Assembly: GCA_963676835.2 (NCBI GenBank)
Contig: CAXXFF010000002.1
Span: forward strand, 736,001 to 800,000
Reading direction: 5' to 3'
Length of the DNA: 64,000 nucleotides
DNA from: Marispirochaeta sp.
Lineage (GTDB): Bacteria; Spirochaetota; Spirochaetia; JC444; Marispirochaetaceae
The notes beneath the pieces are model-generated. The model had not been told where the DNA came from. It worked only from the letters and a program-made list of their open reading frames with translations, and ran no database searches. A program made the translations under genes and the position numbers. Below, one piece after another: positions 34,223 through 58,992 of this stretch. Each line of letters starts with the position of its first letter. The stretch's first letter is position 1.

Positions 34223-37200
34223 ATGGTAGAGCAGTCGGAGATAATCGGTCTTGATATTGGTTCAGTAACAGTCAGTCTTGTAGGTGTTGATGCCGACGGC
34301 GCTGTGTCGGCCCGGGAATCCCTGGTTCACGGGGGGTATGTCAAGAAAGCTGTGGATAGCCTGCTTGCCGGCTGGAGCGGCCGAATCGCGCTTACCGGAC
34401 TTCCTGCTGTGGATCTTGTTCCAGATCTCAAAGTAAATTCTCAAGTAGCTCTTATCCGGGGAGTACGGCAGCTGATGCCGGAAGTAAGAACCCTTGTCTA
34501 TGCCGGTGGTGAACGGTTCGGTCTTCTTGGTTTTGATGAAGACGGAAGCTATACCCATTTTAAGGGCAATCCGGCTTGTGCCGCAGGAACCGGGAGCTTT
34601 CTTGACCAGCAGGCTGAGCGGCTGGGACTGAAGAACAGTGCGGAACTGGCAGATCTGGCGGAAGGTAATAAGGGTGAAATCCCGCGCATAGCTACACGAT
34701 GTGCTGTTTTTGCCAAAACCGATCTTATTCACGCCCAACAGGAGGGCTGGAGTCTTGAGGCTATTTGTGACGGTCTCTGCAATGGTCTTGCGAGAAACCT
34801 TGCGGATACCCTGTTTGACCGTGAAATAGCCGTTCCTGCGGTTTTTGCCGGCGGCCTTGCCCTCAACCGGGCTGTGATGAGGCATCTGGGAGATATCTGC
34901 AATATTCATTTTATTACCGATGCAAATATGTCCATCAGCTTTGCGGCTTACGGAGCGGCACTGGAGCTTCGGGATAATTTGTCTGCACCATCCTTTACGC
35001 CGGTTTCTTCCGGGGCTTCTGTTGAGAAGGAATCCGGGCGTACTGGTCAGGTTTATCCTCCTTTGCTGCTCCAGCTGAGCGAGTATCCGGATTTTGATGA
35101 GCATCAAAGCTATACCTTTGAACCACCTGCGGGGACCGGGACCGGTCTTGTAGAAGTGGATGTTTACCGTGAAGGCGAAGACGGTATAGACCTCTACCTC
35201 GGTGTGGATGTGGGGTCAACTTCAACAAAAGCTGCTTTGATAGATACCAGCAGACAGGTTCTTGCAGGATTCTATACCCGTACAGCTGGCCGCCCAGTAG
35301 AGGCTTTGAAAGGTATTCTTGCTGCCATTGAGGATCTTTCCCGGTGCAGCGGCAGCGAATACAACATACTCGGCAGCGCAACCACCGGTTCCGGCAGGAA
35401 GCTTGCCGGGGCAATCCTGGGAGCAGATACCATACTCGATGAGATCAGTGCCCACGCTTTAGCAGCCTGTGAAATAGACAGTGAAGTGGATACCATTATA
35501 GAGATCGGCGGTCAGGATGCGAAGTTTACCACCTTGAAGCACGGCCGGGTTACCTCTTCGATAATGAACAATGTATGTGCCGCCGGTACAGGCAGTTTTC
35601 TTGAAGAACAGGGGCAGAAGCTTGGCGTAGCCATAACCGAGTATGCCGCAAGGACCGAAGGTATAAGGGCCCCTCTTGCCAGTGACCGCTGTACCGTATT
35701 CATGCAGAGGGATTTGAATCATCTGCTGGCTGAGGGTTGGACGGTGGATGAAGTTCTGGCATCGGCGCTGCATGCGGTGCGGGAAAACTACCTGCAGAAA
35801 GTGGCTGTTGAAAACAGAATAGGCAGAAAAGTATTTTTTCAGGGGGCCACGGCCAAAATCCGGACCCTGGTTGCCGCCTTTGAACAGAAGCTCAATCAGC
35901 CTGTGCTGGTTTCTCCCGTATGCCACCTTACCGGTGCTTTGGGGGCGGCTCTGGAGCTGGCTGACCGCAGGGTTATAACAGACCGGTTTCGCGGTCTTGA
36001 TATCTGGCGCGGGGAGATCCCGGTAAAAACCGAAGTGTGTGAGCTCTGTACCAACCACTGCAAGTTGACGGTGGTAAAAGCCGGCGGTGAGACCGCCGCC
36101 TTCGGTTTTCTCTGCGGCAGGGATTATGAGGATAAAAAGTATGTAAAGGAGAAGAACAGCGGTTTCAGTCTTGAGGGGGCGGTAAAAAAAGCCGCCGGCA
36201 GAGATCCTTCTCCGGCAGATCCGGTTGAGCATATTACCCTGGGACTTCCATCAGGCCTTTATCTCAGGGAAGATATGGTTTACTGGAAGCATTTTTTTGC
36301 TGAACTGGGAATTCCGCTTGTTAGCGGAGACACCCTTTCCGGGACGCTCCAGGAGGGACGGAGGTTTACCCGCTCGGAATTTTGTGCCCCTCTTACGGAA
36401 CTCCACGGACAGGTTCATATGCTGGCGGAGCAGTGTGATCATGTATTTCTCCCGGTCTACACGGAAACCAGCAGGGATAAAAAAGATCTCAGAAAATTCT
36501 GTTACTACAGCCAGTTTGCCCCTGCCATGCTCGCCCAGCAGTTTCCCCGGGGAAAGATCCTTACCCCGGTGGTCAAGTCTCTCAGCCTGCCCTTTAAATC
36601 TCAGGTTGAACTGTACCGGATGTTAAAAAATCTCGGCAGCAGCAGACATTACACTTTCCTTCAGATAAACCGGGCTATGGAAATCGCCCAAACAGCGGCA
36701 GAACGGTATAAAGAATCACTTTTACAGCGTTTTGCAGAAGAACAGGAGAAGCCAAGTGAAGATATTCAGGTTGTTCTCCTCGGCAGGCCCTATACTGTGC
36801 TTTCCCCTCATATGAATAAAGGAATCCCCGCGATTTTCAGTCGCCTGGGAATTCCCGCATTTTTTCAGGATATGGTTCCTTCGGATGCTGATGCAGCAGC
36901 TGCGGTGAAACCCCTCATAGAGGAGATCCACTGGAATTATGCTTCGGGAATACTTGAGACAACAGAAAGCATTGTCCGCAAGTCCGGTTTTTATCCCGTT
37001 TTTGTAACATCCTTTAAATGTTCACCAGACAGTTATCTGCGCACCTATTTCCGGCAGCTCATGGAAGCGCATGACAAGCCCTATCTCGTTCTGGAACTTG
37101 ATGAACACGGGTCCAGCGTGGGCTATGAAACCCGTATTGAAGCTGCGGTGAGGGCCTTCAGAAATCATCATCATACCGAAAAGCAATCTCAAAGGGAATC

Positions 37201-38464
37201 AATACCCTTCGGCTTCAGAATGCAGGGAAAGATTGATATGAAAGGTATCCTGCCTGACCTGTCCAGAGACCTGAGGGGAAAACCTCTGCTCCTGCCTAAC
37301 TGGGACAGCTATACCATGCCCCTGATTGCGGCAAATCTGCGGCACGAAGGGATTGATGCCCGGGTGCTCGACGAGAGCCAGGATTCCATCCGCCGGGGAC
37401 TGAGCCGTAATGACGGGCAGTGTATTCCCATGAATGCCGTGGCGGAGGAAGCAGTTGCCTATGTGCGGCGGCATAAGCTTGATCCGGCAAAAACCCTGCT
37501 CTGGATGATGAAGTCAGATCTTGCCTGTAATATTGCTATGTATCCACATCATATCCGTACCCTCTTCAGAAGTTATCCGGGAATGGAAGAGCTTGGTGTC
37601 TTCAGTGGGGATATTACCTTCGGGGAGGTTTCCGTTGCAGCCGCGGTAAATACCTACTTCGCCTTTCTTTTCGGCGGGCTCCTGCGCAGAATCGGCTGCA
37701 GGCTTCGTCCCTATGAACAGAACAAAGGGGAGACGGATAGAATTCTTAATGAAAGCCTGGTGCAACTGGAGGAGGCCTTCCTCGGGCAACGGAAAAAGAA
37801 GGAGGTTGTTGAAGAGATTATCCGGAAAGTGGAAGCTATCCGTATACTGCCCGGGGAACGCCGGCAGGTGGCCATCTTCGGGGATATCTATGTCCGTGAT
37901 AACGATGTTTTCAACCAGGGGCTCATCTCATTTATCGAAGAGCATGGCGGTGAAGTTATTACTACCCCCTACAGTCAGTATGCCAAGATGATTGCCGAGG
38001 CCTATTTCCGCCGCTGGTTTGCAGAATCCCGCTTTACTACCCTGATTGCCTTCCGTACCCTGCTTACTGCAGTTGAACTGCTGGAACGGAGCTATCGTAC
38101 CCTCTTTGAGGGCCTGCTCCCTGTTATTGATGAACGCTATGACCAGGACCCTGAAGAGATCCTCAGCCACTTTGACATGCGCATCGAGCAATCCGGGGAA
38201 TCCATGGATAACATACTGAAGGTCTGGTATATAAAAGAGCATTACCCGGATATCTCCCTTTTTGTGCAGACAAGTCCCGGGTTCTGCTGCGCAGGGCTGA
38301 TAACGGAAGCCATGGCTGACAGGATTGAAGAGGTGACGGGTGTTCCGGTGGTTTGTCTCACCTATGATGGAACCGGGGGGAATCCCAATGAAACGCTGGT
38401 TCCCTACCTGCGATTTCCCCGTAAAGAGGAGGATGGTGCGGGAGTTGATCTGCAGTACGGCTGA
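34223..38464 (+). CDS. Multidomain acyl-CoA dehydratase activase (two BadF/BadG/BcrA/BcrD ATPase domains plus dehydratase-related C-terminal domains)
   Basis: GLDIGSVT and GVDVGSTSTK; two CAAGTGSFL motifs; RCAVF/RCTVF; IGGQDAK; CELCTNHC. Confidence 0.9.
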   Translation: MVEQSEIIGLDIGSVTVSLVGVDADGAVSARESLVHGGYVKKAVDSLLAGWSGRIALTGLPAVDLVPDLKVNSQVALIRGVRQLMPEVRTLVYAGGERFGLLGFDEDGSYTHFKGNPACAAGTGSFLDQQAERLGLKNSAELADLAEGNKGEIPRIATRCAVFAKTDLIHAQQEGWSLEAICDGLCNGLARNLADTLFDREIAVPAVFAGGLALNRAVMRHLGDICNIHFITDANMSISFAAYGAALELRDNLSAPSFTPVSSGASVEKESGRTGQVYPPLLLQLSEYPDFDEHQSYTFEPPAGTGTGLVEVDVYREGEDGIDLYLGVDVGSTSTKAALIDTSRQVLAGFYTRTAGRPVEALKGILAAIEDLSRCSGSEYNILGSATTGSGRKLAGAILGADTILDEISAHALAACEIDSEVDTIIEIGGQDAKFTTLKHGRVTSSIMNNVCAAGTGSFLEEQGQKLGVAITEYAARTEGIRAPLASDRCTVFMQRDLNHLLAEGWTVDEVLASALHAVRENYLQKVAVENRIGRKVFFQGATAKIRTLVAAFEQKLNQPVLVSPVCHLTGALGAALELADRRVITDRFRGLDIWRGEIPVKTEVCELCTNHCKLTVVKAGGETAAFGFLCGRDYEDKKYVKEKNSGFSLEGAVKKAAGRDPSPADPVEHITLGLPSGLYLREDMVYWKHFFAELGIPLVSGDTLSGTLQEGRRFTRSEFCAPLTELHGQVHMLAEQCDHVFLPVYTETSRDKKDLRKFCYYSQFAPAMLAQQFPRGKILTPVVKSLSLPFKSQVELYRMLKNLGSSRHYTFLQINRAMEIAQTAAERYKESLLQRFAEEQEKPSEDIQVVLLGRPYTVLSPHMNKGIPAIFSRLGIPAFFQDMVPSDADAAAAVKPLIEEIHWNYASGILETTESIVRKSGFYPVFVTSFKCSPDSYLRTYFRQLMEAHDKPYLVLELDEHGSSVGYETRIEAAVRAFRNHHHTEKQSQRESIPFGFRMQGKIDMKGILPDLSRDLRGKPLLLPNWDSYTMPLIAANLRHEGIDARVLDESQDSIRRGLSRNDGQCIPMNAVAEEAVAYVRRHKLDPAKTLLWMMKSDLACNIAMYPHHIRTLFRSYPGMEELGVFSGDITFGEVSVAAAVNTYFAFLFGGLLRRIGCRLRPYEQNKGETDRILNESLVQLEEAFLGQRKKKEVVEEIIRKVEAIRILPGERRQVAIFGDIYVRDNDVFNQGLISFIEEHGGEVITTPYSQYAKMIAEAYFRRWFAESRFTTLIAFRTLLTAVELLERSYRTLFEGLLPVIDERYDQDPEEILSHFDMRIEQSGESMDNILKVWYIKEHYPDISLFVQTSPGFCCAGLITEAMADRIEEVTGVPVVCLTYDGTGGNPNETLVPYLRFPRKEEDGAGVDLQYG

Positions 38465-38550
38465 AATTTTTGGAAGTGCCCCGGTATTAAGCCTTGCGTT
38501 TGCCGTACCGGCGAACTACTCTTAATGCAAAGAATAGTGCGGGTGAATTT

Positions 38551-39477
38551 ATGAATATAGATGCCTCCGGTTTAGTGCAAATTGTCCTCATTGTATCCAT
38601 TCTGCTGCAGCTGGCATCAGCTGTCTACGCGCTGCTGTTGATCCGTCAGTCCGGCTTCCTCCGTCCCTGGCTGCTGGTGTCGGCTTCAATTCTGTTAATG
38701 GCTGTCCGCAGGATTATCAGTTTCTGCCAGATGTCTGCTGCAAAAGATTTCCCTGCATCTGCCCTTGAACCCGAACTGGTCGCGCTGGTTATTTCCATTC
38801 TGATGCTGATCGGCCTTCTCTTTCTTGGTCCTGCATTCCGCATGATACGCATTCAGCGGGAGGTTGAGGTAAAAAAGAAGGATTTTCTGATTCGGGAATC
38901 ACATCATAATGTGAAGAATAATCTTCAGATGCTCAAAGGTCTGATCAGCCTGCAGGGTATTTCCGCGCCCAGCCCTGAAATACAGGAAACATTAAAGGAA
39001 CTGGAGCTGCGGATCGGTTCGTTTCTGCTCCTCCATGAGCAGGTTTATGCAGACACGGGAGATGGTGTTTCTTTACGGGCATATATTCATGCCCTTGTCT
39101 CCGCTGTTGTCGGGGCCTACTCCCATATGAAGGTGGGAATGGTTCTGGATATAGAAGATCTGTACCTCCCGGGAAGAGATCTGATCTCCTGTGGTGTTAT
39201 CGTCAATGAAGCCCTGACCAATTCCTATAAATATGCCTTCTCCGGCAGCGATGATCAGCAGATCAGCATTACAGCAGGCAGGGAAGGGGAACGGGGTTTT
39301 CTTGTTATAAAAGATAACGGCAGAGGTTTCTCAGTTAAAGAGAAAACCGGGGCCGGCCCGGGAGCCTCTTTCGGTCTGACTCTGATGCAGGCTTTGGGCA
39401 AAAATGCCGGCTGGAATCTGGAGATTGACGGGAGTAACGGGACTATAGTTAAGGTAAGTTTTCCTATCACAGCATAA
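38551..39477 (+). CDS. Membrane sensor histidine kinase (HisKA_2/HWE type)
   Basis: Three TM segments; RESHHNVKNNLQ, VNEALTNSYKYAF, DNGRGF, FGLTL. Confidence 0.88.
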   Translation: MNIDASGLVQIVLIVSILLQLASAVYALLLIRQSGFLRPWLLVSASILLMAVRRIISFCQMSAAKDFPASALEPELVALVISILMLIGLLFLGPAFRMIRIQREVEVKKKDFLIRESHHNVKNNLQMLKGLISLQGISAPSPEIQETLKELELRIGSFLLLHEQVYADTGDGVSLRAYIHALVSAVVGAYSHMKVGMVLDIEDLYLPGRDLISCGVIVNEALTNSYKYAFSGSDDQQISITAGREGERGFLVIKDNGRGFSVKEKTGAGPGASFGLTLMQALGKNAGWNLEIDGSNGTIVKVSFPITA

Positions 39478-39486
39478 TGCAGACAC

Positions 39487-39514
39487 AAAAAAACCGGGCG
39501 GTGAAGCCCGGTTT
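39487..39514. terminator. Terminator hairpin between convergent genes (T-tract on the minus strand)
   Basis: AAAAAAACCGGGC-GGTGAA-GCCCGGTTT. Confidence 0.75.
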
Positions 39515-39537
39515 GTATTGTTTACGAATCATAGACG

Positions 39538-41882: not shown

Positions 41883-42301
41883 CAGGAAGCTCCTTGTTCC
41901 GGTCTTTGGGATGTGTAGAAACAGTTTATACAAAGAAAAAATTGTTTCAAGAGAGTATTATACAAAAGGAAAGAGAATTTTTGTACCGGTCTCACCCCGG
42001 GGACTGTAATTTAGAACGTTCCAAAATAGGGGATTGTATTAATTTTACTTGTATATCAGTTAACTGTCTGATTCTCTACAGCTGTTCAACTTTGAAGAGG
42101 GACGGAGGTTCAGGTTTTCAGGTTTCCGGTTATGTTCTAAAGAGGGACGGAGGTTTTGACTATTAGAATATTTTCGGGGTGGTAAGAAATGATGGGAGAC
42201 GAAGGTTTAAAACAGCAAAAAGAGGAAGATCGTGACGTTTAAATTTAACTGTACAGTAACTTGAGTAAAATCAGATAGAACACGGGGGACGCTGTGTTAT
42301 G

Positions 42302-42475
42302 AGCGTGGAAAACGCGCCGGATCGGAAGGGTACCCGCAGGGTATCCTGCACCAAAAGTACCGACGAACTTTTGGTGCAGGACGGAGTCGGGCCGTGCCGC
42401 ACCTTGCAGGCACGGTAGGGACCCGACGGAGCCCTGCAGAGCCGGGTTACGCGCAGAAGAAAAAATCTCTTCTGT
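42302..42475. other. GC-rich multi-hairpin intergenic element (ncRNA, MITE or REP-like; unidentified)
   Basis: Perfect 15 bp stem TCCTGCACCAAAAGT (42344-42358)/ACTTTTGGTGCAGGA (42367-42381), plus nested stems GTCGGG..CCCGAC and CCGTGCC..GGCACGG. Confidence 0.5.
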
Positions 42476-43005: not shown

Positions 43006-44979
43006 ATGCAAATTGATTCTTTACAGGCTGTGGCGAAGAGTGTGAGAGCACTTTCCATTGACGGTGTGCAGGCGGCAAACTCGGGGCATCCCGGGCTTCC
43101 CATGGGAGCGGCTGAGCTGGGTGCGCTTTTATACGGCGAGGTACTGAAGCATAACCCCGCGGATTCCGGATGGGTTGACCGGGACCGGTTTGTGCTTTCA
43201 GCCGGGCACGGCTCCATGTTTCTTTACAGTCTGCTGCATCTGTCCGGGTACAAGCTGAGCCTGGATGAGCTGAAGAAGTTCCGTCAGCTGGGTTCGAAAA
43301 CCCCCGGACATCCGGAGCACGGCTGGACTGACGGTGTTGAGACCTCCACCGGGCCGCTGGGGGCGGGACTGACCAATGCAGTTGGTATGGCCATTGCCGA
43401 AACAATGCTTGCGGCAAAGTTCAATACCGCTGAGCACACCATAATTGACCATTACACCTATGCCCTGGCCGGTGACGGCTGCATGATGGAGGGAGTTACC
43501 TCCGAAGCGGCATCTCTTGCGGGTCATCTGGGGCTTGAGAAGCTGATAGTTTTCTACGATTCCAACCGGATCAGTATCGAAGGCAATACGGAGATTACCT
43601 TTACCGAGAGTGTGGCAGACCGATATAAGGCTTACGGCTGGCAGGTTCTTGAAGGTGATATGTATGATATTGCAGGAACGGCCGGGTTGGTGGCAAAAGC
43701 AAAAGCAGGAACAGAGAGGGACGGAGGAAAGCCGACGCTGATTATTCTGAAGTCAATAATCGGAAAAGGATCGCCAAATATGGAAGGTTCCCATGATGTT
43801 CATGGTGCTCCCCTGGGGACGGAGGAAAGAAAACTGACCCGCAAGAACCTGGGAATCCCCGAAAATGAGGACTTTTACATAGATCCCAAGGCTTCTGAGT
43901 TCTTTGCTGGTAAAAAACCCGGCTGGCAGGCCGCACAGGACGCCTGGAATGAGGGTTTCAAGGCCTGGGCGGCTGCGAATCCTGCGCTTAAAAAGGAGTG
44001 GGATCTCTGGATGGCGGAAAAGTCGGATGCAGGACTGGTTTCCTGGCCTGAATACAAGGTGGGTGATTCTGTGGCTACCCGGAGTGCATCAGGTTCTGCC
44101 ATTAAGGCTATCGGTCAGGGATTAAGCAATTTTGTGGGTGGATCCGCGGATCTTGAGCCTTCAAATAAGACTGCCCTCGGATTTGGCGACTATCAGAAGG
44201 ATAATCGCGGAGGCCGCACCCTCAGATTTGGTGTTCGTGAGCATGCCATGGGCGGAATCGCCAACGGTATTGCCCTCCACGGGGGCTTGAGAACCTTTTG
44301 CGCGACTTTTCTGGTGTTCGCCGACTATATGCGGCCTCCCATGAGACTTGCAAGCCTGATGAAGCTGCCGGTTACCTACGTTCTGACCCATGATTCCATC
44401 TATGTTGGAGAAGACGGACCAACACATCAGCCGGTTGAGCATGTTGAATCCTTAAGGATTATTCCCGGAATGACGGTATTCCGCCCCGGTGATGCTCAGG
44501 AGACCAACTGCGCATATGAAATTGCCCTGGAGAAGACCGATGGACCGGTTGCCCTCGCGCTGACTCGTCAGAACCTTGCGGTATACGAGAAGGCCGATAA
44601 AGACTGGATGAATACCATGCGCAAAGGTGCTTATGTGGTGAAGGATACCGATGGGACTCCGGATGTTGTGGTTGTTGCAACGGGGTCGGAGGTTAATCTT
44701 GCGCTTTCTGCGGCAGAAAAGAGCGGAAAGAAGGTGAAGATTGTCTCCATGCCTTCCAGGGAGACTTTCCAGCAGCAGGATAAGGCTTTTAAAGCCTCTA
44801 TTTTGCCTGCAGGTGTGAAGACTGTGGTTGCTGAGGCTGGAATCGGCGCGGGATGGGAGGGTATTGCCTCTGATCCGGAGCTTATTCTTTGCATGAAAAG
44901 CTTTGGCGAGTCCGGTCCTGCCGGGGATGTTGCGAAGCACTTCGGGTTTATCGTGGAGAATCTTGCTTCCATGCTGTAG
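43006..44979 (+). CDS. tkt: Transketolase
   Basis: [49 protein letters not shown]. Confidence 0.98.
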
Positions 44980-45056
44980 GGGTTGAAACTGTAAACAAAG
45001 ATAATGGGGACGGAGGTTTTGGTATTTTAAACCTTCGTTTATTTTCCAGCGTTTGT

Positions 45057-45085: not shown

Positions 45086-45248
45086 GTAGTTAAGGGGAGA
45101 AGGTCAGTGGACGATCTGTCGCGGGAATTATGCAGCAAAAGCAGGGGATAAGTTTGTAGATACTGGCTGATAAACAGGGACGGAGGTTTTTCTCAAGAAA
45201 TTATTCTATACCTTGAAGCAAACCGGGAAATTCATCGTTCTTGTTTAT

Positions 45249-45722
45249 ATGAGAAAGATAAGGGAAAAGCAGCCCGGGGCTGTGTATCATGTTGTGGCAA
45301 AGACTAACAGAAGTGAATTTATGCTGGAATCAAAACTGGTGAAGCAGATGTTTCTTGTGCTGCTCAAGACTGCACTGAAGAAATATCCGTGCCAGCTTAA
45401 TCATTTCTGTATAATGAGTAACCATGTGCATATTCTGATTGAACCCCTGGATGGAACTGATCTCTCGCAGATGATGCAGTGGCTGTTAAGTGTTTTCGCT
45501 ATCCGGTTCAACAGGCTATATGGTCTTAAAGGACATGTATGGTACGACCGGTTTAAAAGCACAATAGTAAAATCCCTTGAGCATTTTAAAAACAGCTACC
45601 GGTATATTTCCGAAAACCCGGTAAAAGCAGGGATGTGTACTTCCCCGGAGGAGTATGAATTTTCCGGATTACACTGGGTTGATCATCTCCTGCGGTCCGT
45701 AAAAAGGGTCATATTTGAATGA
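45249..45722 (+). CDS. Y1/HUH tyrosine transposase, RAYT-like (stand-alone)
   Basis: YHVVAK, CIMSNHVHILI (HUH), VWYDRFKS, YISENPVKAG (catalytic Tyr plus NPxxAG typical of RAYT-type rather than IS200 TnpA). No tnpB is adjacent. Confidence 0.85.
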   Translation: MRKIREKQPGAVYHVVAKTNRSEFMLESKLVKQMFLVLLKTALKKYPCQLNHFCIMSNHVHILIEPLDGTDLSQMMQWLLSVFAIRFNRLYGLKGHVWYDRFKSTIVKSLEHFKNSYRYISENPVKAGMCTSPEEYEFSGLHWVDHLLRSVKRVIFE

Positions 45723-45795: not shown

Positions 45796-46404
45796 ATGAA
45801 CTGCAATCCTCAGGATCTCCATGTACATACAATTTTCTCGGTCGGTGATGGTGCCGTTGTTCCCCAGATGTCCATAGCCTTTGTTGCGTCCATGGAACAT
45901 GCGGAAGTGCGCGGTATCAGTGATCATTTTGAATATCTCAGAGGTGAAATCTTCGAAGAGTACTCTGCTGAAGTTCGAAAATACGGTTTTTATCTGGGGT
46001 GCGAAGTAAATGATTCTTCCGATGCCCTGGAAGCGGTAGAATACCCTTATGATTACTATATATATCACTGCCGGGATCGGGAGAGTGAATATCGGGGGTC
46101 GGAGGTTCTTCTTTCCACCGGAAAACCGGTAATTATCAGCCACCCCATGGCTATGGGGGCGGATCTTTCCCGTGTTCCAACCGACTGCTATATTGAAATC
46201 AACAACCGCTATGTCTGGAGAGACAATTACCGGGCCTATTTTTCTCCCTGGCTCGATACCTTCCGCTTTGTTTTCGGTTCTGACGCTCATCAGCCGAACT
46301 GGTTGAACCAGACAGTCGCCCGGAAAATTGGAGCGGAGATGGGTGTTAAGGAAAGTATTCTATTTCCTGTCAATTCCGGGGTCTGCGGTTGTTCTGGTAA
46401 ATAA
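45796..46404 (+). CDS. PHP domain phosphoesterase-like protein
   Basis: DLHVHT, ISDH, GCEV, SHP, EINN, FGSDAH motifs. Confidence 0.85.
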   Translation: MNCNPQDLHVHTIFSVGDGAVVPQMSIAFVASMEHAEVRGISDHFEYLRGEIFEEYSAEVRKYGFYLGCEVNDSSDALEAVEYPYDYYIYHCRDRESEYRGSEVLLSTGKPVIISHPMAMGADLSRVPTDCYIEINNRYVWRDNYRAYFSPWLDTFRFVFGSDAHQPNWLNQTVARKIGAEMGVKESILFPVNSGVCGCSGK

Positions 46405-46476
46405 AGAGGGACGGAGGTTTCTTTTAGGCTGCCCCCGTTCAAAGCTCCCATTCGAGCTTAACCACACAATCCTCTG

Positions 46477-47241
46477 TTATAAATCCACCGAATCAATAGA
46501 ACTCTGCAGGGCTTGAATGATGTATTTACGGATCTTGGTTTTTTCAGAATTGGTTGTTTTCGGTGTGAAGATTATCACATAAATTTTAGGCTTTGCCTCT
46601 CTGAAGCCTAAAACCACACCCGAAACGCTGACCAGGCTGCTTCTCAGGCGTAGCTGAATCCCCTCAAGCAGGGTGTTTTTCTGCAGTTTCGGATCGGCGT
46701 TATCAAAGGTTACCGCCATTCCAATGGAACTTACGTCGATAATATTTCCCGGAAGTACTGTATCTGAAATTCTTACATTGAAGATAGCATTCTTGTCATC
46801 GCTGCTATTGACCCGTACATACTTCCTCCGTCCCCGTGCTTCACTTGCTTCCAGGGCGGTGAGGATTATTTTTGTGCTCTGCGCCAATCCGAGCTTAAGC
46901 TGGATAAATCCGCACTGTACGCCGATATCCATCAGGTATTTCTGCTTAAGCTCTGCATCATTATTGTATGAGAGGATCCCGATACGAACATCCTTAAGTG
47001 CGGCGTTGCCGATAATGCCTTTGATATATTCTTCCCACTCCTCTTCGCTCAGTTTGTCATCGATGTTAATAAAAAGGATAGAGTCGGGATATTTCTCAAG
47101 AATTCTCAGTGCACGTCTATGATCTTTGAGAAGGGTAACTTCGTATTCCTGGGTTATAAGGGTATATAAGAGTTCTTCCTGTACAACACTGTGAGGATAC
47201 AGGAGGAATACTTTTTTTCCGGCTATTTCAGCGTTTGCCAT
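46477..47241 (-). CDS. PilZ domain protein (c-di-GMP receptor candidate)
   Basis: RRKYVR (RxxxR) and DVSSIG (D/NxSxxG) motifs after a receiver-like N-terminus. Confidence 0.8.
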   Translation of the reverse strand: MANAEIAGKKVFLLYPHSVVQEELLYTLITQEYEVTLLKDHRRALRILEKYPDSILFINIDDKLSEEEWEEYIKGIIGNAALKDVRIGILSYNNDAELKQKYLMDIGVQCGFIQLKLGLAQSTKIILTALEASEARGRRKYVRVNSSDDKNAIFNVRISDTVLPGNIIDVSSIGMAVTFDNADPKLQKNTLLEGIQLRLRSSLVSVSGVVLGFREAKPKIYVIIFTPKTTNSEKTKIRKYIIQALQSSIDSVDL

Positions 47242-50530: not shown

Positions 50531-50597
50531 TATTACCCCTGCTGTTCTCTCGCTTATGTAACCTTAATAAATTCCGTCTCTGGATACAACCGGAATA

Positions 50598-51176
50598 TCA
50601 GATGCTGCTTTCAACAGCAGCTTGTACGTCTGAAATAATCCTCCGTCCCCATGGGACCACGGTTTTTTCTTCATTCTGCAGATATCCGGTAATTTCTTTG
50701 ATCGGTATTTCCCTGCGCGTTTTACGATTAAGTCGGTAGAAGGCGGTATTCATTCCCTGGATGGTCCGGTAGCTTTCAAACCAGTCTTCCATGACCAGTA
50801 CAGAGGAGGTAAAGGTGAAATGTCCAGAAACAGTGTCTCCAAGAGCCTCAAGAACCGAGTAGGTCGTGTGCTTAAAAACCTTGAAAGGTTCAGCTGAGAA
50901 TTCATGCCATCGGGAGGCCAGTACAAAGTCGATAATAAGATCTGCCATAACTCCGGGGTAGGGGAAGCCTCTGGAGGAGATATGGGATCTCAGGCTTTTG
51001 AAATCGCTGTTGGAATCTGTTGTACGGTCAATCAGGTGATGCAGCTCTATTCCTGTCTGGACAGCTTCGGGCAAACTCAGGGTATCTATGTGGCGGATCG
51101 AGTCCCCTGCAAGGTTTCCGACCAGAATTCCGGCGTTATCTTTGGGAGAGAGAAAGGCATGGGCAAGATAATTCAC
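50598..51176 (-). CDS. ACP phosphodiesterase (AcpH-like)
   Basis: MNYLAHAFLS, GNLAGD, GIELHHLIDRTTD. Confidence 0.8.
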   Translation of the reverse strand: MNYLAHAFLSPKDNAGILVGNLAGDSIRHIDTLSLPEAVQTGIELHHLIDRTTDSNSDFKSLRSHISSRGFPYPGVMADLIIDFVLASRWHEFSAEPFKVFKHTTYSVLEALGDTVSGHFTFTSSVLVMEDWFESYRTIQGMNTAFYRLNRKTRREIPIKEITGYLQNEEKTVVPWGRRIISDVQAAVESSI

Positions 51177-51307: not shown

Positions 51308-51517
51308 TTACAGAAAAGTCCGGGCTCTTTCTGCCTGTGATGGAAAAAGATCTTCCGGAACAGCACTGCTGCCTTTTGCTTTAAAGACCATGTACCTGGC
51401 GCAATTGGTATTATCCCCGAGACAATATTTATTTTTCATTATCTCCGAAAGGGCTGGCATCTTCTGCATCCTGTCATTAAAGAACGGACATTTTGGCAGG
51501 CATTCACATTCAGCCAT
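51308..51517 (-). CDS. Small Cys-rich hypothetical protein
   Basis: 69 aa, CECLPKCPFF...YCLGDNTNCARY...VPEDLFP; clear AGGAGG RBS. Confidence 0.75.
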   Translation of the reverse strand: MAECECLPKCPFFNDRMQKMPALSEIMKNKYCLGDNTNCARYMVFKAKGSSAVPEDLFPSQAERARTFL

Positions 51518-51583
51518 ATAAATTCCTCCTGATTTTTGATTACTGTTATCAGTATAGGCAATTGACAGAAGGTTCGCAAATTT

Positions 51584-52900: not shown

Positions 52901-52957
52901 TGACTCCTTTTTATGCTGGCTGTTATTTTACCATGGGATGCGGCTTAATCTGCCGGA

Positions 52958-55900
52958 TTAATTCAGAGATTCCGGGCTGTCCAGTAGCTGAAAGATATTT
53001 TCTATACTCTCCCGGCTGAAATCAGCTGTGGATTCTCTGGCAATATTGTCCCTGAGATAGATCAGATATGTTTTAACCGGCTTGCCGTGTATTGCGGTCA
53101 GTGCTTTGCGGTAAAGATACATCTGCATATCATATTCCCCGGGTGTAACAGCTCGATTTGTCTTGAAATCCAGACAGATAATTTTGTCATCGAGAAGACA
53201 ATAAAGATCAATAATGCCGTCCACTGCACGTATTGCAGAACCGGTTTTCAGTCCCAGGGTGAAGGGCTTTTCCGCATACACCTGAGTCCCATCAGGAATC
53301 AGGGCCTTCCTCTCTGGTGATTCCCAGAAGTCAGCGGCTATTGATCCGGCCATGTGGGAAATTCGCTGCTGATTCTCACTGCTGTGTTCGGGAAAAAGAT
53401 TCGGCAGAGCAGATGGATCTTCCCCGAGAGTCAACAGCTCCAGGGCTCTATGCACCATGGTGCCGAAACGTTCTGCACCTTCCTGTATAAGATTGTCTAC
53501 TGCCAGTTTGGGCAGGGATATACTCTCCTTATGGTCCAGACTCTGGGCTGCCGCAGCATTGAGCCTGGTGGCGCTGACGGCATCCTTCCCGGAAGGCATG
53601 GCAAAATCCTCCGTCCCCAGAAAGCCGAGATAATTGCCTGCAGTCCTGTTTCGTTTCCTGCTTCCCCGCTTTTTCAGCATTGACAGGGTTGCAGGAGTAA
53701 AAGGCACAATTCGGGGAGAATCCTCCGTCCCCAGTCCTTTGCGTATCAGATCCAGCAGGCTTGGAATCTTGCCTTTTTTCCCCGGTTCATAGCCAAGCAT
53801 AATCAGGTGCTGTTCGGCTCGGGTAAAGGCCACATAGAGCAGACGTTTCAGTTCCGCCGTTTCCTGCAGGTCCGCGGCGGCTCTGCTCTTTTCGTAGAAG
53901 GGGTTTTTTCTGCTCTTTTTTCCTTGTTCATCTGTCCTGCTCAGATTGATGGTCAAGCCGAACTCACTGTCGATGTAGTAGGGCGCGCGGCCGTCCATGT
54001 TGGTGCTCCCCTGACCGGTTGAACCGGTGAGGACAATGGGAAACTCCAGCCCTTTGGATTTATGGATGGTCATGATGCGGATGCCGCCGCCGCCGGAACT
54101 GAGGGTTTCTATTTCATCGAGTTTTTTATATTCCCCCATGTTGTCCCGCAGGAAATCGATAAAAACCGCTGCGGATTCTCCTCTATTCCAGCTGGCATCA
54201 GCCAGGGTGACCAGGTAGTCATAAAACTCCAGATACCCATGGTAGGCGGGATTTTTCAGCAGGTTATAGCGGTATCCGCAGTCGAACCAGAGGTAGCGCA
54301 GCAGCTGACGGTGAGGAACAGTGTCCATCATGTCCTGAAGGGTCCGATAAATTTCCCGGCCACTACAGTATTTTTTATATTCATCTCCGGGAAGATCGAG
54401 TTCTGTTAAACTGAAAAGCCCCCTGTTTTCCAGCAGATCCTTCAGCAGATATTCATCTTCAAGATTGACAAAGAAGGAGCGGAGAAATACGGCGTAGGCT
54501 GTTCTGTCCTCGGGGTAGAGGGCCAGCTGCAGGGCGGCGTAGATATCATTGGCCGGAGCTTCGTAAAAGAGCGTGCGGATATTTTCCGTTGTGTAGGGGA
54601 TTTCAAAGCGCCGAAAGATCCGCTCATAAATAATCTGGTTACCCGTAGTTCTCAGAAGCAGGGCAAAATCGTCATAAGCTGGAGGGCGGATGGTTCCGTC
54701 CCGGTCGCAGATGTTCAAGCCTCTGCCGGCAACAGCTTCAGTAATAATGCGGGCGGCTTCATATGCTTCCGATTCAGCAGCCTGGAGTTCATCCTCTTCC
54801 GGGATTTCTGAAGCTTCAAGAATATGCAGCCGAATCTCCGGTTCCGGAACCCCGGGCTGCTTCTCCCGGCCTTTGAGCGGGCGGAACTCGGCTTCAAAGT
54901 CATTGCTTTCACCGCCCTCTTCCGGGGTAAACACTGCAGGGAAGAAGCTGTTGAAAAAGTCGATTAACAGAGGATTACTGCGGTAGTTTGTGGCAAGTTC
55001 CACCGGGGTATTGCCCAGGTCTGCTGCAAGCTGCTTGAACACCCGTACATCCGCGCCCCGGAAGCGGTAGATGGACTGTTTCTCGTCGCCTACGAAAAAA
55101 AGCTTGCCCGGGTCCAGTTCGGAAGGTGCAGGAATCCCTTCTTTAAGGCGATCAGATTTTTCTGCCAGCAGATAGAGCAGCTCTTTCTGTTCTTCGTTGT
55201 TATCCTGAAACTCATCGATCATTATGTAGCGGAACTGCTCTTTATAGAATTTCCTCAGTTCAAGGTTCTCCCGCAGCAGGGTTACCGCCATGGCGACAAC
55301 ATCCGAGAAGGAGACCATTCCCTGCTGGCGCTTGATGCTCAGCCATCCAGTGGCGAATGTGTCCAACAGTTCCATTACCCCGGCGAAAAGCTCCTTTTGC
55401 ATAAGCATTACAAGGTAGCCCTGTGCTTTTTCCGCCAGGGGAGTAAGTTGTTCGTGAATATCCTTTAAAAGAATAAGGTCGGGATTGGTACTGTCTGATC
55501 GCGGTTTCCGGTAGGGGGCGCTTTGGGTAAGGCTGTTCAGTGCCTCCCAGCTTTCCTCCTCAATCAGTTCTTCCGTATCGGGCCAGCCATCCGCGGCAGC
55601 GGCAGCCTTATCCAGGGTTGCGGATTTCTTTGCAGCCCCTGCAGCGATGCGTCCCATCTGCTGGTAAAGACCGTCGAGCTGTGTAAAAAGTGTTCTTATT
55701 TCATTTAGGCAGTGCCGCTGCTGTTTTTCAAACGCCCCGGCATGATCCGGCACGCCGGTAATCAGCAGGTGATACTCTGCGTAGGCGGCAAAAAGATTCT
55801 TCCACACACTGTCAAATCCATTAGCCTGGATAAGCTGGTGGAGGGCGCTGTTGCCGTTATGGCGCAGTATAAAATCCAGAGCATAGCTTTCCGCGTTGCT

Positions 55901-56275
55901 TGAGAGCCGAGTCTGATCAATGGAAAAGGATGAGGGCAGACCGAACCTTACGGCGTCATTACGGGCAATCCTGGCACAGAAACTGTCCAGGGTGGAGATC
56001 TGGGCCTGATCGAAAAGGGGCAGCTGTTTTCTTACTGCCGGATTATCAGAATTTTCCACCAGCAGTTTGTGGATGCGGCTGTACATCTCCGCCGCAGCTT
56101 TTCTTGTAAAGGTCAGGGTCAGAATGGAGGGGATCTCCACACCTTCCTGAACCAGCGCAAGGTAGCGGCCGGCAAGCACCGTGGTTTTCCCCGAACCGGC
56201 TCCGGCGGCAACCACCGTGTTGGATCGTACATTAACAGCTGTTTTCTGATCATCATCAAAGGGAGGCTGGGGCAT
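52958..56275 (-). CDS. UvrD/SF1 helicase-nuclease, AddA-like
   Basis: AGAGSGKT, TFTRKAAAEM, IDEFQD, VGDEKQSIYRFRGAD, TIHKSKGLEF, LLYVAFTRAE, C-terminal nuclease GIID...DFKT. Confidence 0.92.
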   Translation of the reverse strand: MPQPPFDDDQKTAVNVRSNTVVAAGAGSGKTTVLAGRYLALVQEGVEIPSILTLTFTRKAAAEMYSRIHKLLVENSDNPAVRKQLPLFDQAQISTLDSFCARIARNDAVRFGLPSSFSIDQTRLSSNAESYALDFILRHNGNSALHQLIQANGFDSVWKNLFAAYAEYHLLITGVPDHAGAFEKQQRHCLNEIRTLFTQLDGLYQQMGRIAAGAAKKSATLDKAAAAADGWPDTEELIEEESWEALNSLTQSAPYRKPRSDSTNPDLILLKDIHEQLTPLAEKAQGYLVMLMQKELFAGVMELLDTFATGWLSIKRQQGMVSFSDVVAMAVTLLRENLELRKFYKEQFRYIMIDEFQDNNEEQKELLYLLAEKSDRLKEGIPAPSELDPGKLFFVGDEKQSIYRFRGADVRVFKQLAADLGNTPVELATNYRSNPLLIDFFNSFFPAVFTPEEGGESNDFEAEFRPLKGREKQPGVPEPEIRLHILEASEIPEEDELQAAESEAYEAARIITEAVAGRGLNICDRDGTIRPPAYDDFALLLRTTGNQIIYERIFRRFEIPYTTENIRTLFYEAPANDIYAALQLALYPEDRTAYAVFLRSFFVNLEDEYLLKDLLENRGLFSLTELDLPGDEYKKYCSGREIYRTLQDMMDTVPHRQLLRYLWFDCGYRYNLLKNPAYHGYLEFYDYLVTLADASWNRGESAAVFIDFLRDNMGEYKKLDEIETLSSGGGGIRIMTIHKSKGLEFPIVLTGSTGQGSTNMDGRAPYYIDSEFGLTINLSRTDEQGKKSRKNPFYEKSRAAADLQETAELKRLLYVAFTRAEQHLIMLGYEPGKKGKIPSLLDLIRKGLGTEDSPRIVPFTPATLSMLKKRGSRKRNRTAGNYLGFLGTEDFAMPSGKDAVSATRLNAAAAQSLDHKESISLPKLAVDNLIQEGAERFGTMVHRALELLTLGEDPSALPNLFPEHSSENQQRISHMAGSIAADFWESPERKALIPDGTQVYAEKPFTLGLKTGSAIRAVDGIIDLYCLLDDKIICLDFKTNRAVTPGEYDMQMYLYRKALTAIHGKPVKTYLIYLRDNIARESTADFSRESIENIFQLLDSPESLN

Positions 56276-58992
56276 CAGCGTTCTCCTCGGATTACATATT
56301 TACCCCGGCAGAGGCTGCGCAGACTGCAGGAGCCGCACTCATCGGGATTGCTGCGGTAGTCTCCCCGGTCCATTTTCTCTTTCATGGTTAGGATATAATG
56401 ACGGGTAAGGGCGGTCAATTCGGTAAATTCATCTTCGTTCAGGATGACCTTCTTTCTCGGCGGCAGAGGGAGGGGGACGGAGGAGCTGACCAGGGTGAAC
56501 TCCCCTTTCGCTGCGGAATAATAGGCAGTTATACAGTCATCTCCGCGGTTGCTGATACCGCAGGCATGGAGCAGCAGGGCATAAAAAGGTATCTGCATGC
56601 TTACCGGAGGAGCTCCCGGTGAGGGTTTCATGTCTCCTGCTTTGAGGTTGAGATTCTTTTTGTAGTCCACAATCAGAATTTCTCCTGCCGGCCCCCGGGA
56701 AACCCTGTCGACCCTTCCTCCTATGGCAATCCCCTCTATGGATGATTTCAGCTTCTTTTCCGTCTCCATTGTTCTGAAGCCGTCGAAGAGCGCTGCCTCT
56801 GCAGCCGGATACAGAAGGAGCTGCTGGAGCATCTGATCAAGGCTGGCCTGCCATGCCGGTTTGATCGGCAGTGGGCGCAGGGAGAGCTTTTCTGCGGCAT
56901 CTGAGAAAATCTGTGCAATTCGTTTGCTGTATTCTTCAATTTCAGCCGAGAGGAACGGTTTTCCTCCCAGGGAATCGCTGAAAGCTTCCAGCACGGTGTG
57001 CAGAAAGATTCCCTCCAGCCGGTGATCCCGTACCATGGGCGTGTATTCTTCCCTGTTCAGTCCAAGGATGCGCTGAAACAGAAAAGCGAAGGGGCAGCTG
57101 TAGAATCCATCCAGGTCCGTGGGGCTCAGGCTTCCTCCGTCCCCGGTATCGCTGAACTGCTGTATAAGTCCCTCAGTCAGGCCTGCATGAGAAACAGTGG
57201 AATCAAGCAGATCCATATTCCTCAGGCGGCCGCCGGTATCCCGGAAGCGGGTATACCCCTGTCTGCGCCATCCGGCGGGCGGGTACTCCGGTTCCGCTGC
57301 TTCCGTTTCTGCAAACCAGGCGCGTTCTTCCTGTTCGGGGTCTGCTGCAGGCCATTCTGTGTCTGCATTATGTATTCTTCCGGACTCGACAAAGTAGCCG
57401 GGTGCAAGTCCCGGGCCGGCGAATCCCCGGGCAGCACAGCTTATAATGGTCTCTTTTCCCGATTCGGCATACAGCTTCAGATAGGCAGAACTTACATCCT
57501 CATCCTTGATTCCGCACTCAAGTCTCTGTGCCTCATTCAGGGGAAATCCCCTGTCCCAGCTGACCCGGCTCGAATCCTGGGTAAGAAAGGGTATAAAGTG
57601 GAAGGCCGGAGCAATTCCTGCTGTGGCCCGGTAGGGGTAGACCGATATCCCCCGCACCGGCTGCTGCTCAACATAGGCTGCATCTTCAAGGCTCTGCAGC
57701 CAGATCTGAAAAGGTCGGGCCGGGATAAGTTCCGGATATACTTCAGCAGTTTCGGCAAAATCATTCAGTTCTTCCAGGGCCCGCTGAAAGGCTTTCAGCT
57801 GATTAGGTGCCCGTTTCAGCCAAAGGTCGGTATCGAGGAAAGTGGCTGTAAAGGCCTGTATGGCTTTGGCTGTTTCGCCGAAGTCCGGCGCTGAAAGGAT
57901 TCTCCGGAAGCTTCCTTCCAGACGAAGGTAGAGATCCAGGGAAGCTTTTTTCTCCCCGCTTTTCAGTGCTTCTGCCCATCCGTGGCTGCGGCCTTTCTCT
58001 CTCCAGTTTCTTAAAACATAACAATCCACTCCGTCCTGTATCAGTTGCCGGAGTTCCTGTTCCTTCTTCCAGGGAATTCCCCGGTTAAGGAGAAGATTTT
58101 TCATGGATTCCATGGAAAAGGAGCCGGAAAGGGCTTCAGATATCAGCTGAAAAAGCCGCACGGATGCATATTCATTCAACTTTTTTCCGGAATGAAAACG
58201 CAGGGGTATCCCGTAATGGTGGGCATACTCATCAAGTACAGGTCTGTTTTTTTCCAGCTCCGGACAGGTGACAATTATCTCATCCGGGGAGGTTCCCTGT
58301 GAGAGAAGGCTTCTGATGCGGGCAAAGAGGGCCGAGGCTTCTTCCCGCTGTGTTGCGTACATGACAATCCGGGGACCCGTACTGTCCGGCTTTAATAATT
58401 CTTCCCCGGCTGAGATTACCCGGATATTCCGGTGTTTCTTGAGCATCTCCCGGTACTGGGGATAATCCTCGAGGAGCTCCGGAAAGCAGAGAACATAGGT
58501 CTCCTGTATTTCCCCGGGAGAAGGGCTGAGCATGGAGGGTTCATACAGGTCCTTCTCATTGAGAAAATCCCCGTACCGTTCTGCAAGGGATCGGATGTCC
58601 GCTGCCAGAGGCCATGGTCTTGTCTGCACTTCGGGAAGAAGGCTGTGAAGTCTTGGAAGGATGCGGACGAGCTCATTCACCGATCCTGCAGGGCTTTCTC
58701 CGTCTACCGGTAGAAGGTGAACCAGGAACGGTTTTTTCTGCTGCTCCCGGGCAGTCTTAACCGCAAAGAGCCTGCGGACCTTTCCGTTGACCGGTTTCCG
58801 GCTCTCCCTCAGCCCGAAGGCCTGTTCCTTGAAGCGGTCCCAGGAGATAAATCTCTCTCCGGAAACTGCTTCGGCGTATCCTCCGTTTACAGCGGTATGA
58901 CGCCAGAAGCGTGCGCTGATTTCAGAAGGAAATACCAGATGTACCGAGGTGTCACCCAGAAGGGCGGTAAGGGATGTAAATCTTTCCTGCAT
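56275..58992 (-). CDS. AddB-like inactive helicase/PD-(D/E)XK nuclease with Fe-S staple cysteines
   Basis: LSPTDLDGFYSCPF, GRVDRV, IVDYK, C-terminal CGSCSLRSLC; coupled to the AddA-like gene. Start uncertain (58992 ATG or 59031 TTG). Confidence 0.85.
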   Translation of the reverse strand: MQERFTSLTALLGDTSVHLVFPSEISARFWRHTAVNGGYAEAVSGERFISWDRFKEQAFGLRESRKPVNGKVRRLFAVKTAREQQKKPFLVHLLPVDGESPAGSVNELVRILPRLHSLLPEVQTRPWPLAADIRSLAERYGDFLNEKDLYEPSMLSPSPGEIQETYVLCFPELLEDYPQYREMLKKHRNIRVISAGEELLKPDSTGPRIVMYATQREEASALFARIRSLLSQGTSPDEIIVTCPELEKNRPVLDEYAHHYGIPLRFHSGKKLNEYASVRLFQLISEALSGSFSMESMKNLLLNRGIPWKKEQELRQLIQDGVDCYVLRNWREKGRSHGWAEALKSGEKKASLDLYLRLEGSFRRILSAPDFGETAKAIQAFTATFLDTDLWLKRAPNQLKAFQRALEELNDFAETAEVYPELIPARPFQIWLQSLEDAAYVEQQPVRGISVYPYRATAGIAPAFHFIPFLTQDSSRVSWDRGFPLNEAQRLECGIKDEDVSSAYLKLYAESGKETIISCAARGFAGPGLAPGYFVESGRIHNADTEWPAADPEQEERAWFAETEAAEPEYPPAGWRRQGYTRFRDTGGRLRNMDLLDSTVSHAGLTEGLIQQFSDTGDGGSLSPTDLDGFYSCPFAFLFQRILGLNREEYTPMVRDHRLEGIFLHTVLEAFSDSLGGKPFLSAEIEEYSKRIAQIFSDAAEKLSLRPLPIKPAWQASLDQMLQQLLLYPAAEAALFDGFRTMETEKKLKSSIEGIAIGGRVDRVSRGPAGEILIVDYKKNLNLKAGDMKPSPGAPPVSMQIPFYALLLHACGISNRGDDCITAYYSAAKGEFTLVSSSVPLPLPPRKKVILNEDEFTELTALTRHYILTMKEKMDRGDYRSNPDECGSCSLRSLCRGKYVIRGER

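Follow-up and report, generated by a model that had tools for sequence, protein, structure and literature searches.

A distance-decaying field of a short motif around a TIRtron-like Y1 transposase gene in Marispirochaeta and other Spirochaetota

The stretch of DNA analysed here (the window, 64 kb long, to whose positions all plain coordinates refer) comes from the 4.43-Mb genome of a Marispirochaeta sp. (G000) and carries the gene of a Y1 (HUH) tyrosine transposase, around which 15 exact copies of a 10-mer, GGGACGGAGG, are gathered. Such fields are real, are replicated across many genomes family-wide in Spirochaetota and are tied to the Y1 gene. As judged from genome comparisons, exact copies of the motif accumulate near the gene after its arrival, also inside genes where the encoded protein tolerates them, and these copies are paralogue-specific, distance-decaying, without polarity and kept intact afterwards. 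The resident Y1 gene very probably causes the field, whatever the route. We read the field, with a probability of about 0.5, as the product of a long-resident TIRtron-like element exerting a local molecular drive that is filtered by selection on host proteins, and not as a chromosomal domain designed by the host.

The motif field and its gene in the window

A search of the window returned all 15 copies, at 36355..57143, exactly where and on the strands that an earlier, sequence-only reading of this DNA had placed them; five are intergenic and ten lie in genes, and comparison of their flanks shows that all fit RGGGACGGAGGW. Dinucleotide shuffles of the window contain a mean of 0.15 copies, and none of 100 shuffles reaches 15. 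Genome-wide there are 24 copies of GGGACGGAGG in G000, 15 of which sit inside one 21-kb interval, so the motif is not equally dense across the chromosome. When locally clustered 10-mers were ranked over the whole genome, GGGACGGAGG came seventh, and the six words above it all overlap within one repetitive region on contig C3. A single one of its 30 one-mismatch variants, GGGTCGGAGG, is present in the region, twice (44683 and 46096).

The peptides encoded by the in-gene copies are GTE (three times), GRR (three times), R/GDGG (twice), LRP and SVP. That amino-acid sequence alone does not suffice to explain them, as the sequence-only reading had argued, is borne out: with the proteins fixed and synonymous codons resampled, 0.157 in-gene copies are expected against the 10 observed (P(≥10) = 9e-19). 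Protein-compatible sites up to 12.5 kb from Y1 carry the exact motif in 10 of 15 cases, those more than 200 kb away or on other contigs in 7 of 610. Chance and codon bias are ruled out by the shuffles, the counts of compatible sites and the codon resampling taken together. Peptides able to encode the motif are also about fourfold denser near Y1 than elsewhere in G000, and many copies therefore came with amino-acid changes. As to orientation, 12 of the 15 window copies point inward, while eight of the ten in-gene copies simply follow the direction of their gene.

The Y1 gene likely starts at the ATG at 45249 and encodes 157 amino acids (P0001) with the catalytic signature NHVH (H59-V60-H61) and YISENP (Y119); H59, H61, Y119, N123 and P124 are invariant in all 38 aligned homologues, which were chosen among 120 listed of 220 matches. 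Pfam recognises Y1_Tnp as the sole domain, and the NCBIfam profile REP_Tyr_transpos (NF047646) scores just above its cut-off (81.7 versus 80 bits), the IS200 profile well below (26.6 versus 55 bits). The predicted structure (pLDDT 90) has its best fold match in the TnpA-REP structure 4er8 (TM score 0.74, E 3.6e-10), which is also the sole match of a sequence search against the Protein Data Bank (PDB), and IS200/IS605-type Y1 HUH structures match the model at a Foldseek E of about 1e-6. There is no C-terminal helix-turn-helix (HTH), and the aligned homologues terminate shortly after the core. Among the matches listed, named homologues belong mostly to Spirochaetota; a search of 72,556 plasmid records gave one distant match (E 1e-20). 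G000 has one intact copy, and a weak Y1-like tblastn match was observed at C2:100310-100522 (29% over 72 amino acids, E 0.004).

The features of the field are listed below, with their state in the congeneric genomes G001 to G005, of which G002 carries Y1 at the same place.

36355..57143, no strand: dense field around Y1, with 15 exact and 2 variant copies
36355..36364, + strand: copy in a BadF/BadG ATPase-family gene, sense (EGRR); G002 keeps the motif, G001, G003 and G005 have the same peptide in different codons
38658..38667, - strand: copy in a histidine-kinase-like gene, antisense (LRP); 9-mer core kept in G002, FKP in G001
42099..42153, + strand: two intergenic copies, at 42099 and 42144, 45 nt apart, both aagaGGGACGGAGGtt; one copy in the G002 gap
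43718..43727, + strand: copy in the transketolase gene, sense (RDGG); a 9-nt indel relative to G002 lies immediately 5'
43816..43825, + strand: copy in the transketolase gene, sense (GTE); kept in G002, absent in 4 of 4 outgroups
44683..44692, + strand: variant copy GGGTCGGAGG in the transketolase gene; identical in G002
45007..45016, + strand: intergenic copy just 3' of the transketolase stop; G002 has a copy in the same gap
45177..45186, + strand: left-end motif, 72 nt 5' of the Y1 ATG; matching position in close-homologue loci
45213..45220, + strand: TTGAA(G/T)C box between end motif and Y1 ATG; recurs in element alignments of G041, G188 and G223
45249..45722, + strand: Y1 (HUH) tyrosine transposase, 157 amino acids; Pfam Y1_Tnp, NCBIfam REP_Tyr_transpos
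46096..46105, + strand: variant copy GGGTCGGAGG in the PHP gene; exact GGGACGGAGG in G002
46408..46417, + strand: intergenic copy 3' of the PHP gene; G002 has a copy in the same gap
46825..46834, - strand: copy in a PilZ-domain gene, sense (GRR); codon choice alone makes the motif
50640..50649, - strand: copy in an ACP phosphodiesterase gene, sense (GRR); 9-mer core kept in G002
53608..53617, - strand: copy in an AddA-like helicase gene, sense (GTE); from the codon alignment with relatives
53722..53731, - strand: copy in the AddA-like helicase gene, sense (GTE); adjoins a 4-codon gap relative to outgroups
56474..56483, + strand: copy in an AddB-like nuclease gene, antisense (SVP); adjoins a 3-codon insertion relative to outgroups
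57134..57143, - strand: copy in the AddB-like nuclease gene, sense (GDGG); from the codon alignment with relatives

The TTGAA(G/T)C box is a putative promoter element; a sigma-70 consensus scan detected no promoter at 45213..45220.

Elsewhere in the window, a conserved, strongly folding non-coding element (z = -4.9) lies between a pyrK-like gene and thioredoxin (42312-42450, + strand). It is alignable in G001, G002, G004 and G005, with a closing helix ACGCGCCGG...CCGG..ACGCGC, and inside it G000 and G002 have GGACGGAG, eight of the nine bases of the core motif, which G001, G004 and G005 are without. The element gave no credible Rfam match, and the Rfam search of the window returned a tRNA alone at the gathering score; we presume that the element is possibly a housekeeping RNA such as 6S. 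The tRNA gene lies at 62734-62807 (+ strand), and a 513-amino-acid protein encoded at 59046-60587 (- strand) is 74-96% identical within the genus and matches PTS-HPr weakly. Other local clusters of 10-12-mers in G000 occur at C3:0.6-27 kb, C2:1,634-1,654 kb and C2:519.6-520.0 kb, and CAATTGGAGC has 17 copies on C3; such clusters are probably repeat-containing genes or arrays.

Relatives, mobility and the shape of the field

The Y1 subfamily occurs in 83 of 401 genomes of the class, with 1-7 copies per genome at unrelated loci. A comparison of 41 genomes separates bearers from non-bearers: all ten genomes with the subfamily hold 22-89 copies of RGGGACRGAGSW, 2.7-24 times the reversed control, and all 31 without it hold at most 20, no more than 1.5 times that control. 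Within the genus, 15 of the 25 motif copies of G002 fall in the same 22 kb. An intact Y1 was not found in three of the five congeners (G001, G003 and G005), which have 7-16 scattered copies; G005 gives a weak Y1 match below the cut-off. In G004, Y1 is on another contig, and the genome has 85 copies in patches and none in the 60 kb syntenic to the window. Codon alignments place the exact motif at no orthologous position in G001, G003, G004 or G005, as the sequence-only reading would have it for relatives without the gene there; G003 has the T variant at the orthologous PilZ site. Relative to these outgroups, the EGRR and GRR sites keep their peptide and change codons, and other sites change residues or adjoin indels. 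In G003, a Y1 remnant was observed (L023:9552-10085; C1 about 1,835,550-1,836,080), internally deleted, within a low-GC island, with the right-end motif only and no field.

Empty insertion sites in other relatives give the same picture. The locus of G022 has 13 copies and that of G412, where the insertion is shared, 9; all four syntenic empty loci have none, and the same holds for the four empty loci compared with G358 (20 copies). For G287 (11 copies), seven empty loci have 0, 0, 0, 1, 1, 1 and 5; the partial exception with five copies is G188, whose empty orthologue lies about 100 kb from one of its own Y1 genes. No neighbour gene common to the loci was seen in these comparisons. The PHP gene, the neighbour of Y1 in the window, is present without adjacent Y1 in G001, G003, G004 and G005, which rules it out as a partner.

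In the light of these comparisons, it is hardly credible that the motif is unrelated to Y1 and represents a Chi-like site of AddAB, a Shine-Dalgarno-like GGAGG, a regulator operator, codon bias or chance. Such explanations could point to the AddA- and AddB-like genes in the field, to the GGAGG contained in the motif and to a lean of in-gene copies toward sense (57 of 80 versus 59% expected, P = 0.03). They are largely refuted by the lack of dense fields in all 31 genomes without the subfamily, by fields that follow Y1 in other contexts, with variants such as GGGACAGAGC that lack GGAGG, by copies on both strands and mid-gene, and by the codon null given above. A link to AddAB and Chi is ruled out in particular, as the same region is motif-free in G001, G003, G004 and G005.

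The motif also marks the ends of the gene's own unit. The family consensus, RGGGWCRGASW, is non-palindromic, and GGG[AT]C[AG]GA[GC] is the top enriched word in many of 80 genome loci with unrelated gene contexts. Between copies, 11-12 nt are conserved and nothing beyond. A hairpin REP around the motif is ruled out by folding: eight of eight contexts fold no better than shuffles (z -1.43 to 1.98). A + strand motif lies at most 260 nt upstream of the gene in 81 of 88 close-homologue loci (among them a few duplicates). In genomes with 5-7 copies, each Y1 gene is bracketed by an inverted motif pair about 0.8-0.9 kb apart, the spacing being 783-909 nt in 21 of the 24 loci with the right end shown. 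Paralogous units share the motif (10-11 nt), the TTGAA box and the open reading frame only, at a DNA identity of 51-63%, and in a more distant clade the similarity between copies stops at the motif. Because of the upstream copies, the inverted pairs and the similarity that ends at the motif, the latter (RGGGACGGAGSW, a bare 11-12 nt) is the signal that bounds a mobile unit of TIRtron-like type, about 0.8-0.9 kb long. As for the gene in the window, the exact copy that comes first downstream, at 46408, has direct orientation, and an inverted one is not reached until 1.6 kb from the ATG.

Several loci show further arrangements. More distant relatives have hairpin-embedded versions of the motif (e.g. 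L097, L208 and L209). In G395, two more Y1 paralogues (L257 and L258) are flanked by several palindromic GGTGACWGTCACC and GGTGCCWGGCACC and not by the GGGACAGAG word, which suggests that the bare motif may derive from a 13-nt quasi-palindrome. L223 and L224 hold derivatives like miniature inverted-repeat transposable elements with inverted AGGGTCAGGC ends, and several extra left ends nearby; L139 (G188:C2 about 584,000-585,500) has two tandem Y1 units, each with its own end motifs. At L123:9548-10270 (G022) and L238 (G412), the Y1 unit directly follows a tRNA (CAT) terminator, and in relatives the next gene comes immediately after the tRNA.

The shape of the field was measured on five complete or near-complete chromosomes with 10-12 nt patterns, tandem copies thinned, in bins from 1-2 kb to more than 1 Mb. 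The density per 100 kb is 67, 50, 46 and 32 out to 16 kb, then 12, 4.6, 1.4, 0.86, 0.55, 0.39 and 0.23; it thus drops smoothly from about 50 to about 1 by 100 kb, and the last bin represents background because the reversed-pattern control gives about 0.19. For the four single-copy genomes among these, the decay is better described by a power law with an exponent of 1.05 than by an exponential plus background (difference of 12 log-likelihood units). The domain of ±10 kb that the sequence-only reading had drawn therefore dissolves, as the density has no fixed border and decays smoothly to background. Polarity toward the gene, of the Chi or KOPS kind, is ruled out, with 67 pooled far sites pointing toward and 57 away from it. 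Beyond 1.5 kb from the gene, eight single-copy loci have 3-18 copies per 20 kb versus 0-6 in 16 multi-copy loci, which stem from only three genomes with 5-7 copies each.

Fields are specific to their paralogue. In G044, one paralogue is accompanied by 14 GGGACGGAG and no GGGACAGAG, and two others by 15 and 10 GGGACAGAG and by 1 and 0 GGGACGGAG. The motif variant tracks the protein clade in the tree of loci found here, in which kin share labels, so that this is no test of co-evolution; candidate specificity residues of the subfamily are positions 24, 99 and 112. The host genes that carry motifs vary from locus to locus. The G358 field ends at a low-GC island, and the G380 field is one-sided, with no such island seen there.

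Gain and maintenance of the copies

G000 and G002 are far apart (synonymous divergence, dS, 0.55-2.6; 53% of four-fold sites differ), yet, of the 33 synonymous positions that the ten exact in-gene motifs contain, 30 align identically in the two genomes, which upholds the supposition that these copies are conserved at synonymous sites; two of the three exceptions fall at the tenth base and one is a matter of gap placement. All ten 9-mer cores are intact in G002, which keeps 12 of the 12 in-gene core sites of G000 and has four extra. Across 19 fields with 198 exact 9-mers, one-mismatch words number 89 versus 88 expected (GGGACGGAG). For GGGACAGAG there is a mild excess (43 versus 29 expected, 8 of the 43 being the sister variant), as there is in the G395 clusters that lack a Y1 gene (10 versus 5 expected). 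Recognition thus appears to be all-or-none, and the copies seem not to be simply decaying scars.

New copies grew, in most cases, from near-matches, and a blind overwrite of host sequence is not supported on average, the mismatch to outgroups being near background. There are also signs of enzyme action: two of six in-gene indels between G000 and G002 abut the motif, indels lie within five codons of 3-4 of 11-12 sites per outgroup versus 0.5-0.7 expected, motif-bearing tandem duplications of 17-45 nt are common in fields, and one in-frame insertion with two motifs is absent in seven of seven relatives. At a few further sites, 3-4 codons are replaced and 5-10 of the 11 nt differ although the flanks on both sides are conserved, as in NTNAP-GDR-GTFINS and DYAGN-TSVP-LDE. 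Tandem arrays near Y1 genes were observed in L067, L068, L137 and L148, with units of 17-36 nt and one motif per unit. The strain-level pairs at 99% identity (L210/L213, L223/L224 and L107/L206) have no polymorphic motifs, and the mutational step was not caught in them.

How could an enzyme bring this about? Acting mainly near its own gene, Y1 may nick single-stranded DNA at exact motifs, and strand transfer or repair initiated at the nick would favour the motif-bearing sequence. Near-matches would be completed, mutated copies restored from the sister or homologous strand and short motif-bearing duplications made, with host-protein constraint filtering the resulting sites. We put forward only tentatively the strong form of this proposal, in which a cis-acting HUH enzyme rewrites near-matching DNA around it, even where this encodes essential proteins, as its own 11-12-nt recognition word and mends that word after mutation, at a rate that follows chromosome contact with its own gene. 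If true, this would be a local sequence drive by an enzyme with no RNA guide and no hairpin, residence time and contact would be recorded in the genome, and such fields might be the seed stage of REP families.

Another route would be local hopping or pasting: the element, or a minimal fragment with the motif, would land nearby and excise again, or be pasted in, and the end motif would stay behind as a footprint. Local hops would produce a smooth distance decay, the motif is the element's end, and both the indels and tandem duplications at motifs and the few replaced codons between conserved flanks would follow naturally. We nevertheless hold this to be improbable, since most in-gene sites are unchanged in length and about as close to the outgroup sequence as the DNA around them is, scars of single events should decay where 30 of 33 synonymous positions are kept and no one-mismatch halo is present, and similarity between copies does not extend past 11-12 nt.

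Host-level selection for exact binding sites is the more serious, if still rather unlikely, alternative. Here, Y1 would be useful near its own locus or titrated there, and point mutations and slippage duplications that create sites would be favoured, more so nearer the gene. This would account for sites that arise mostly from near-matches at background divergence, for the strongly conserved synonymous positions and, as expected under all-or-none selection, for one-mismatch variants at their chance frequency; the purifying selection on the Y1 gene itself fits as well. Difficulties arise from the gene being patchy and mobile, with 1-7 copies at unrelated loci, from fields that span unrelated genes without polarity, from the lack of a shared neighbour gene in the empty-site comparisons and from clusters that persist away from any Y1; moreover, any benefit would need to be paralogue-specific and to change gradually with distance from the gene across some 100 kb. 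The mobility of the gene bears likewise on the sequence-only reading, which saw a HUH nuclease and its motif as marking a chromosomal domain: the link to the gene and the locality of a non-palindromic, hairpin-free motif have stood, and the idea of a domesticated, single-copy, host-maintained marker with fixed borders has not, as the gene moves, sits in a unit of about 0.8-0.9 kb with an inverted motif pair and was not found in intact form in three of five congeners.

Several observations weigh against the local drive by a resident element that we prefer. Equilibrium counts are predicted alike by all-or-none selection and by biased conversion, and the purifying selection on Y1 between G000 and G002 (pN 0.15, pS 0.77 for nonsynonymous and synonymous differences, synonymous sites saturated) fits a host benefit equally. 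Alignable in-gene sites (31 of 38) differ from outgroups at 4.8 of 11 nt, with a background of 4.2-4.5 and 8.25 for random sequence; conserved residues are changed only mildly more often at sites (16/66 versus 1963/13132, P = 0.054), and loops that tolerate changes in length may account for the indels close to motifs. Contigs of four sequencing runs have no joint at a motif among 15 listed of 45 joints, and they give nothing on excision or inversion. Clusters without adjacent Y1 exist in G395 (28 exact copies in 75 kb) and G004 (22 in 100 kb), for which reason strict cis action is not the whole story; these may be fragments of earlier fields that were moved elsewhere, or may mark places where a Y1 gene once resided, and a field could likewise be blurred by rearrangement. 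Such Y1-less clusters of exact motifs, mostly in genes, were seen at L254-L256 and L258 (G395) and at L033 and L129-L132 (G004). Finally, the far tail of the density lies near the reversed-pattern control, loci from related genomes are not independent, and the assemblies of G044 and G004 are fragmented, the latter with 12% contamination.

The largest RAYT group had no known DNA substrate or function. For a widespread subfamily, the association now offers a precisely defined candidate substrate, and it pairs natural specificity variants with protein clades. Here a mobile gene very probably reshapes the codon usage, and in places the residues, of nearby housekeeping genes across tens of kilobases. 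Two open questions become testable, namely the role of REP-less RAYTs and the origin and maintenance of short repeat families. If the enzyme does write or restore the motif, a 157-amino-acid protein would harbour an undescribed editing chemistry.

Comparison with known systems

The following comparisons rest on parts of the published sources cited. Class-2 Y1 enzymes cut and rejoin single-stranded DNA via a 5'-phosphotyrosine, and the free 3'-OH can prime synthesis or attack another site (PMC8266576). Members of the IS200/IS605 family such as IS608 and ISDra2 share the Y1 HUH fold and, as a family, the chemistry of single-stranded DNA cleavage and rejoining. The enzyme described here differs from them in having Y---NP instead of Y---Q; subterminal hairpins are lacking, as is a TnpB gene next to Y1 in the window, and paralogous units are 51-63% identical rather than near-identical.

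Closer is the REPtron enzyme TnpA-REP (PDB 4ER8; PMC8266576), with which Y1 has in common its fold (TM score 0.74), its catalytic residues, an enzyme-specific cognate repeat and tandem amplification of repeats. The REPs of REPtrons are GTAG-tagged hairpins of 20-40 nt that occur genome-wide and are almost all extragenic, in-gene REPs being insertions (PMC8266576). Unlike in REPtrons (groups 2 and 3), the word seen here is a hairpin-free 11-12-mer near the gene, mostly made at unchanged length; there are no GT[AG]G-tagged flanking hairpin REPs, and in place of genome-wide extragenic repeats, 15 of 24 copies lie within 21 kb, 10 of the 15 in genes.

DNA uptake sequences (PMC2817400) and cyanobacterial HIP1 (PMC4390886) resemble the field in being short exact motifs in coding DNA, with the encoded tripeptides commoner and the residues poorly conserved, and a repair-based model of creation has been proposed for HIP1 (PMC4390886). 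These motifs are genome-wide and tied to competence or methyltransferases, whereas the present one is local, linked to a mobile HUH gene and paralogue-specific.

With subclass 2.1 of TnpA-Y1, or RAYT Group 1, the gene shares NHVH, Y---NP, a low copy number, diverged paralogues, patchiness and the lack of REP hairpins (PMC6006769; 10.1101/119735). Subclass 2.1 proteins have a median of 238 amino acids, a C-terminal HTH and W[EQ]/FQ (PMC6006769), whereas Y1 has 157 amino acids, WY and no HTH. Most TIRtrons belong to subclass 2.1, near which no REP-like sequence is reported (Quentin et al. 2018, PMC6006769), and Group 1 is described as not associated with REPINs (Bertels et al., 10.1101/119735, 10.1101/2021.07.10.451892). 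Because those studies sought hairpins within 1 kb or extragenic 16-mers, they would have missed an 11-mer in genes, and Group 1 was left without a substrate. Local diversifying recombination by a subclass 2.1 enzyme has been proposed and later qualified (Laurenceau et al., 10.1101/2020.03.09.984088).

TIRtrons, with their RAYT-like TIRYT gene and inverted repeats sharing GGGGWSAS, were named by Di Nocera et al. (2013, PMC3733652). As in TIRtrons, an inverted pair of ends is present, here in multi-copy genomes; the sister variants GGGGACAG and GGGGTCAG match the TIRtron consensus exactly and GGGGACGG at seven of eight positions, and the window motif, RGGGACGG, departs from it at position 7 (PMC3733652). 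TIRtrons have long terminal inverted repeats (TIRs), in families of single, dimeric or grouped TIRs (PMC3733652), whereas no long TIRs are seen here and 11-12 nt are conserved, in a hairpin-free, distance-decaying local field mostly in genes. A local, distance-decaying field was not found in the TIRtron description (PMC3733652, its additional files lying outside the scope) and, in its in-gene form, was not found in the literature, the supplements of PMC3733652 and PMC6006769 and most subscription papers lying outside the scope. Already known, then, are the enzyme family and the related terminal consensus GGGGWSAS. The class-2 Y1 signature and fold agree with the RAYT-type enzyme proposed from the sequence alone; its closest known family, however, is TIRYT/TIRtron and not the classical REP-associated RAYT.

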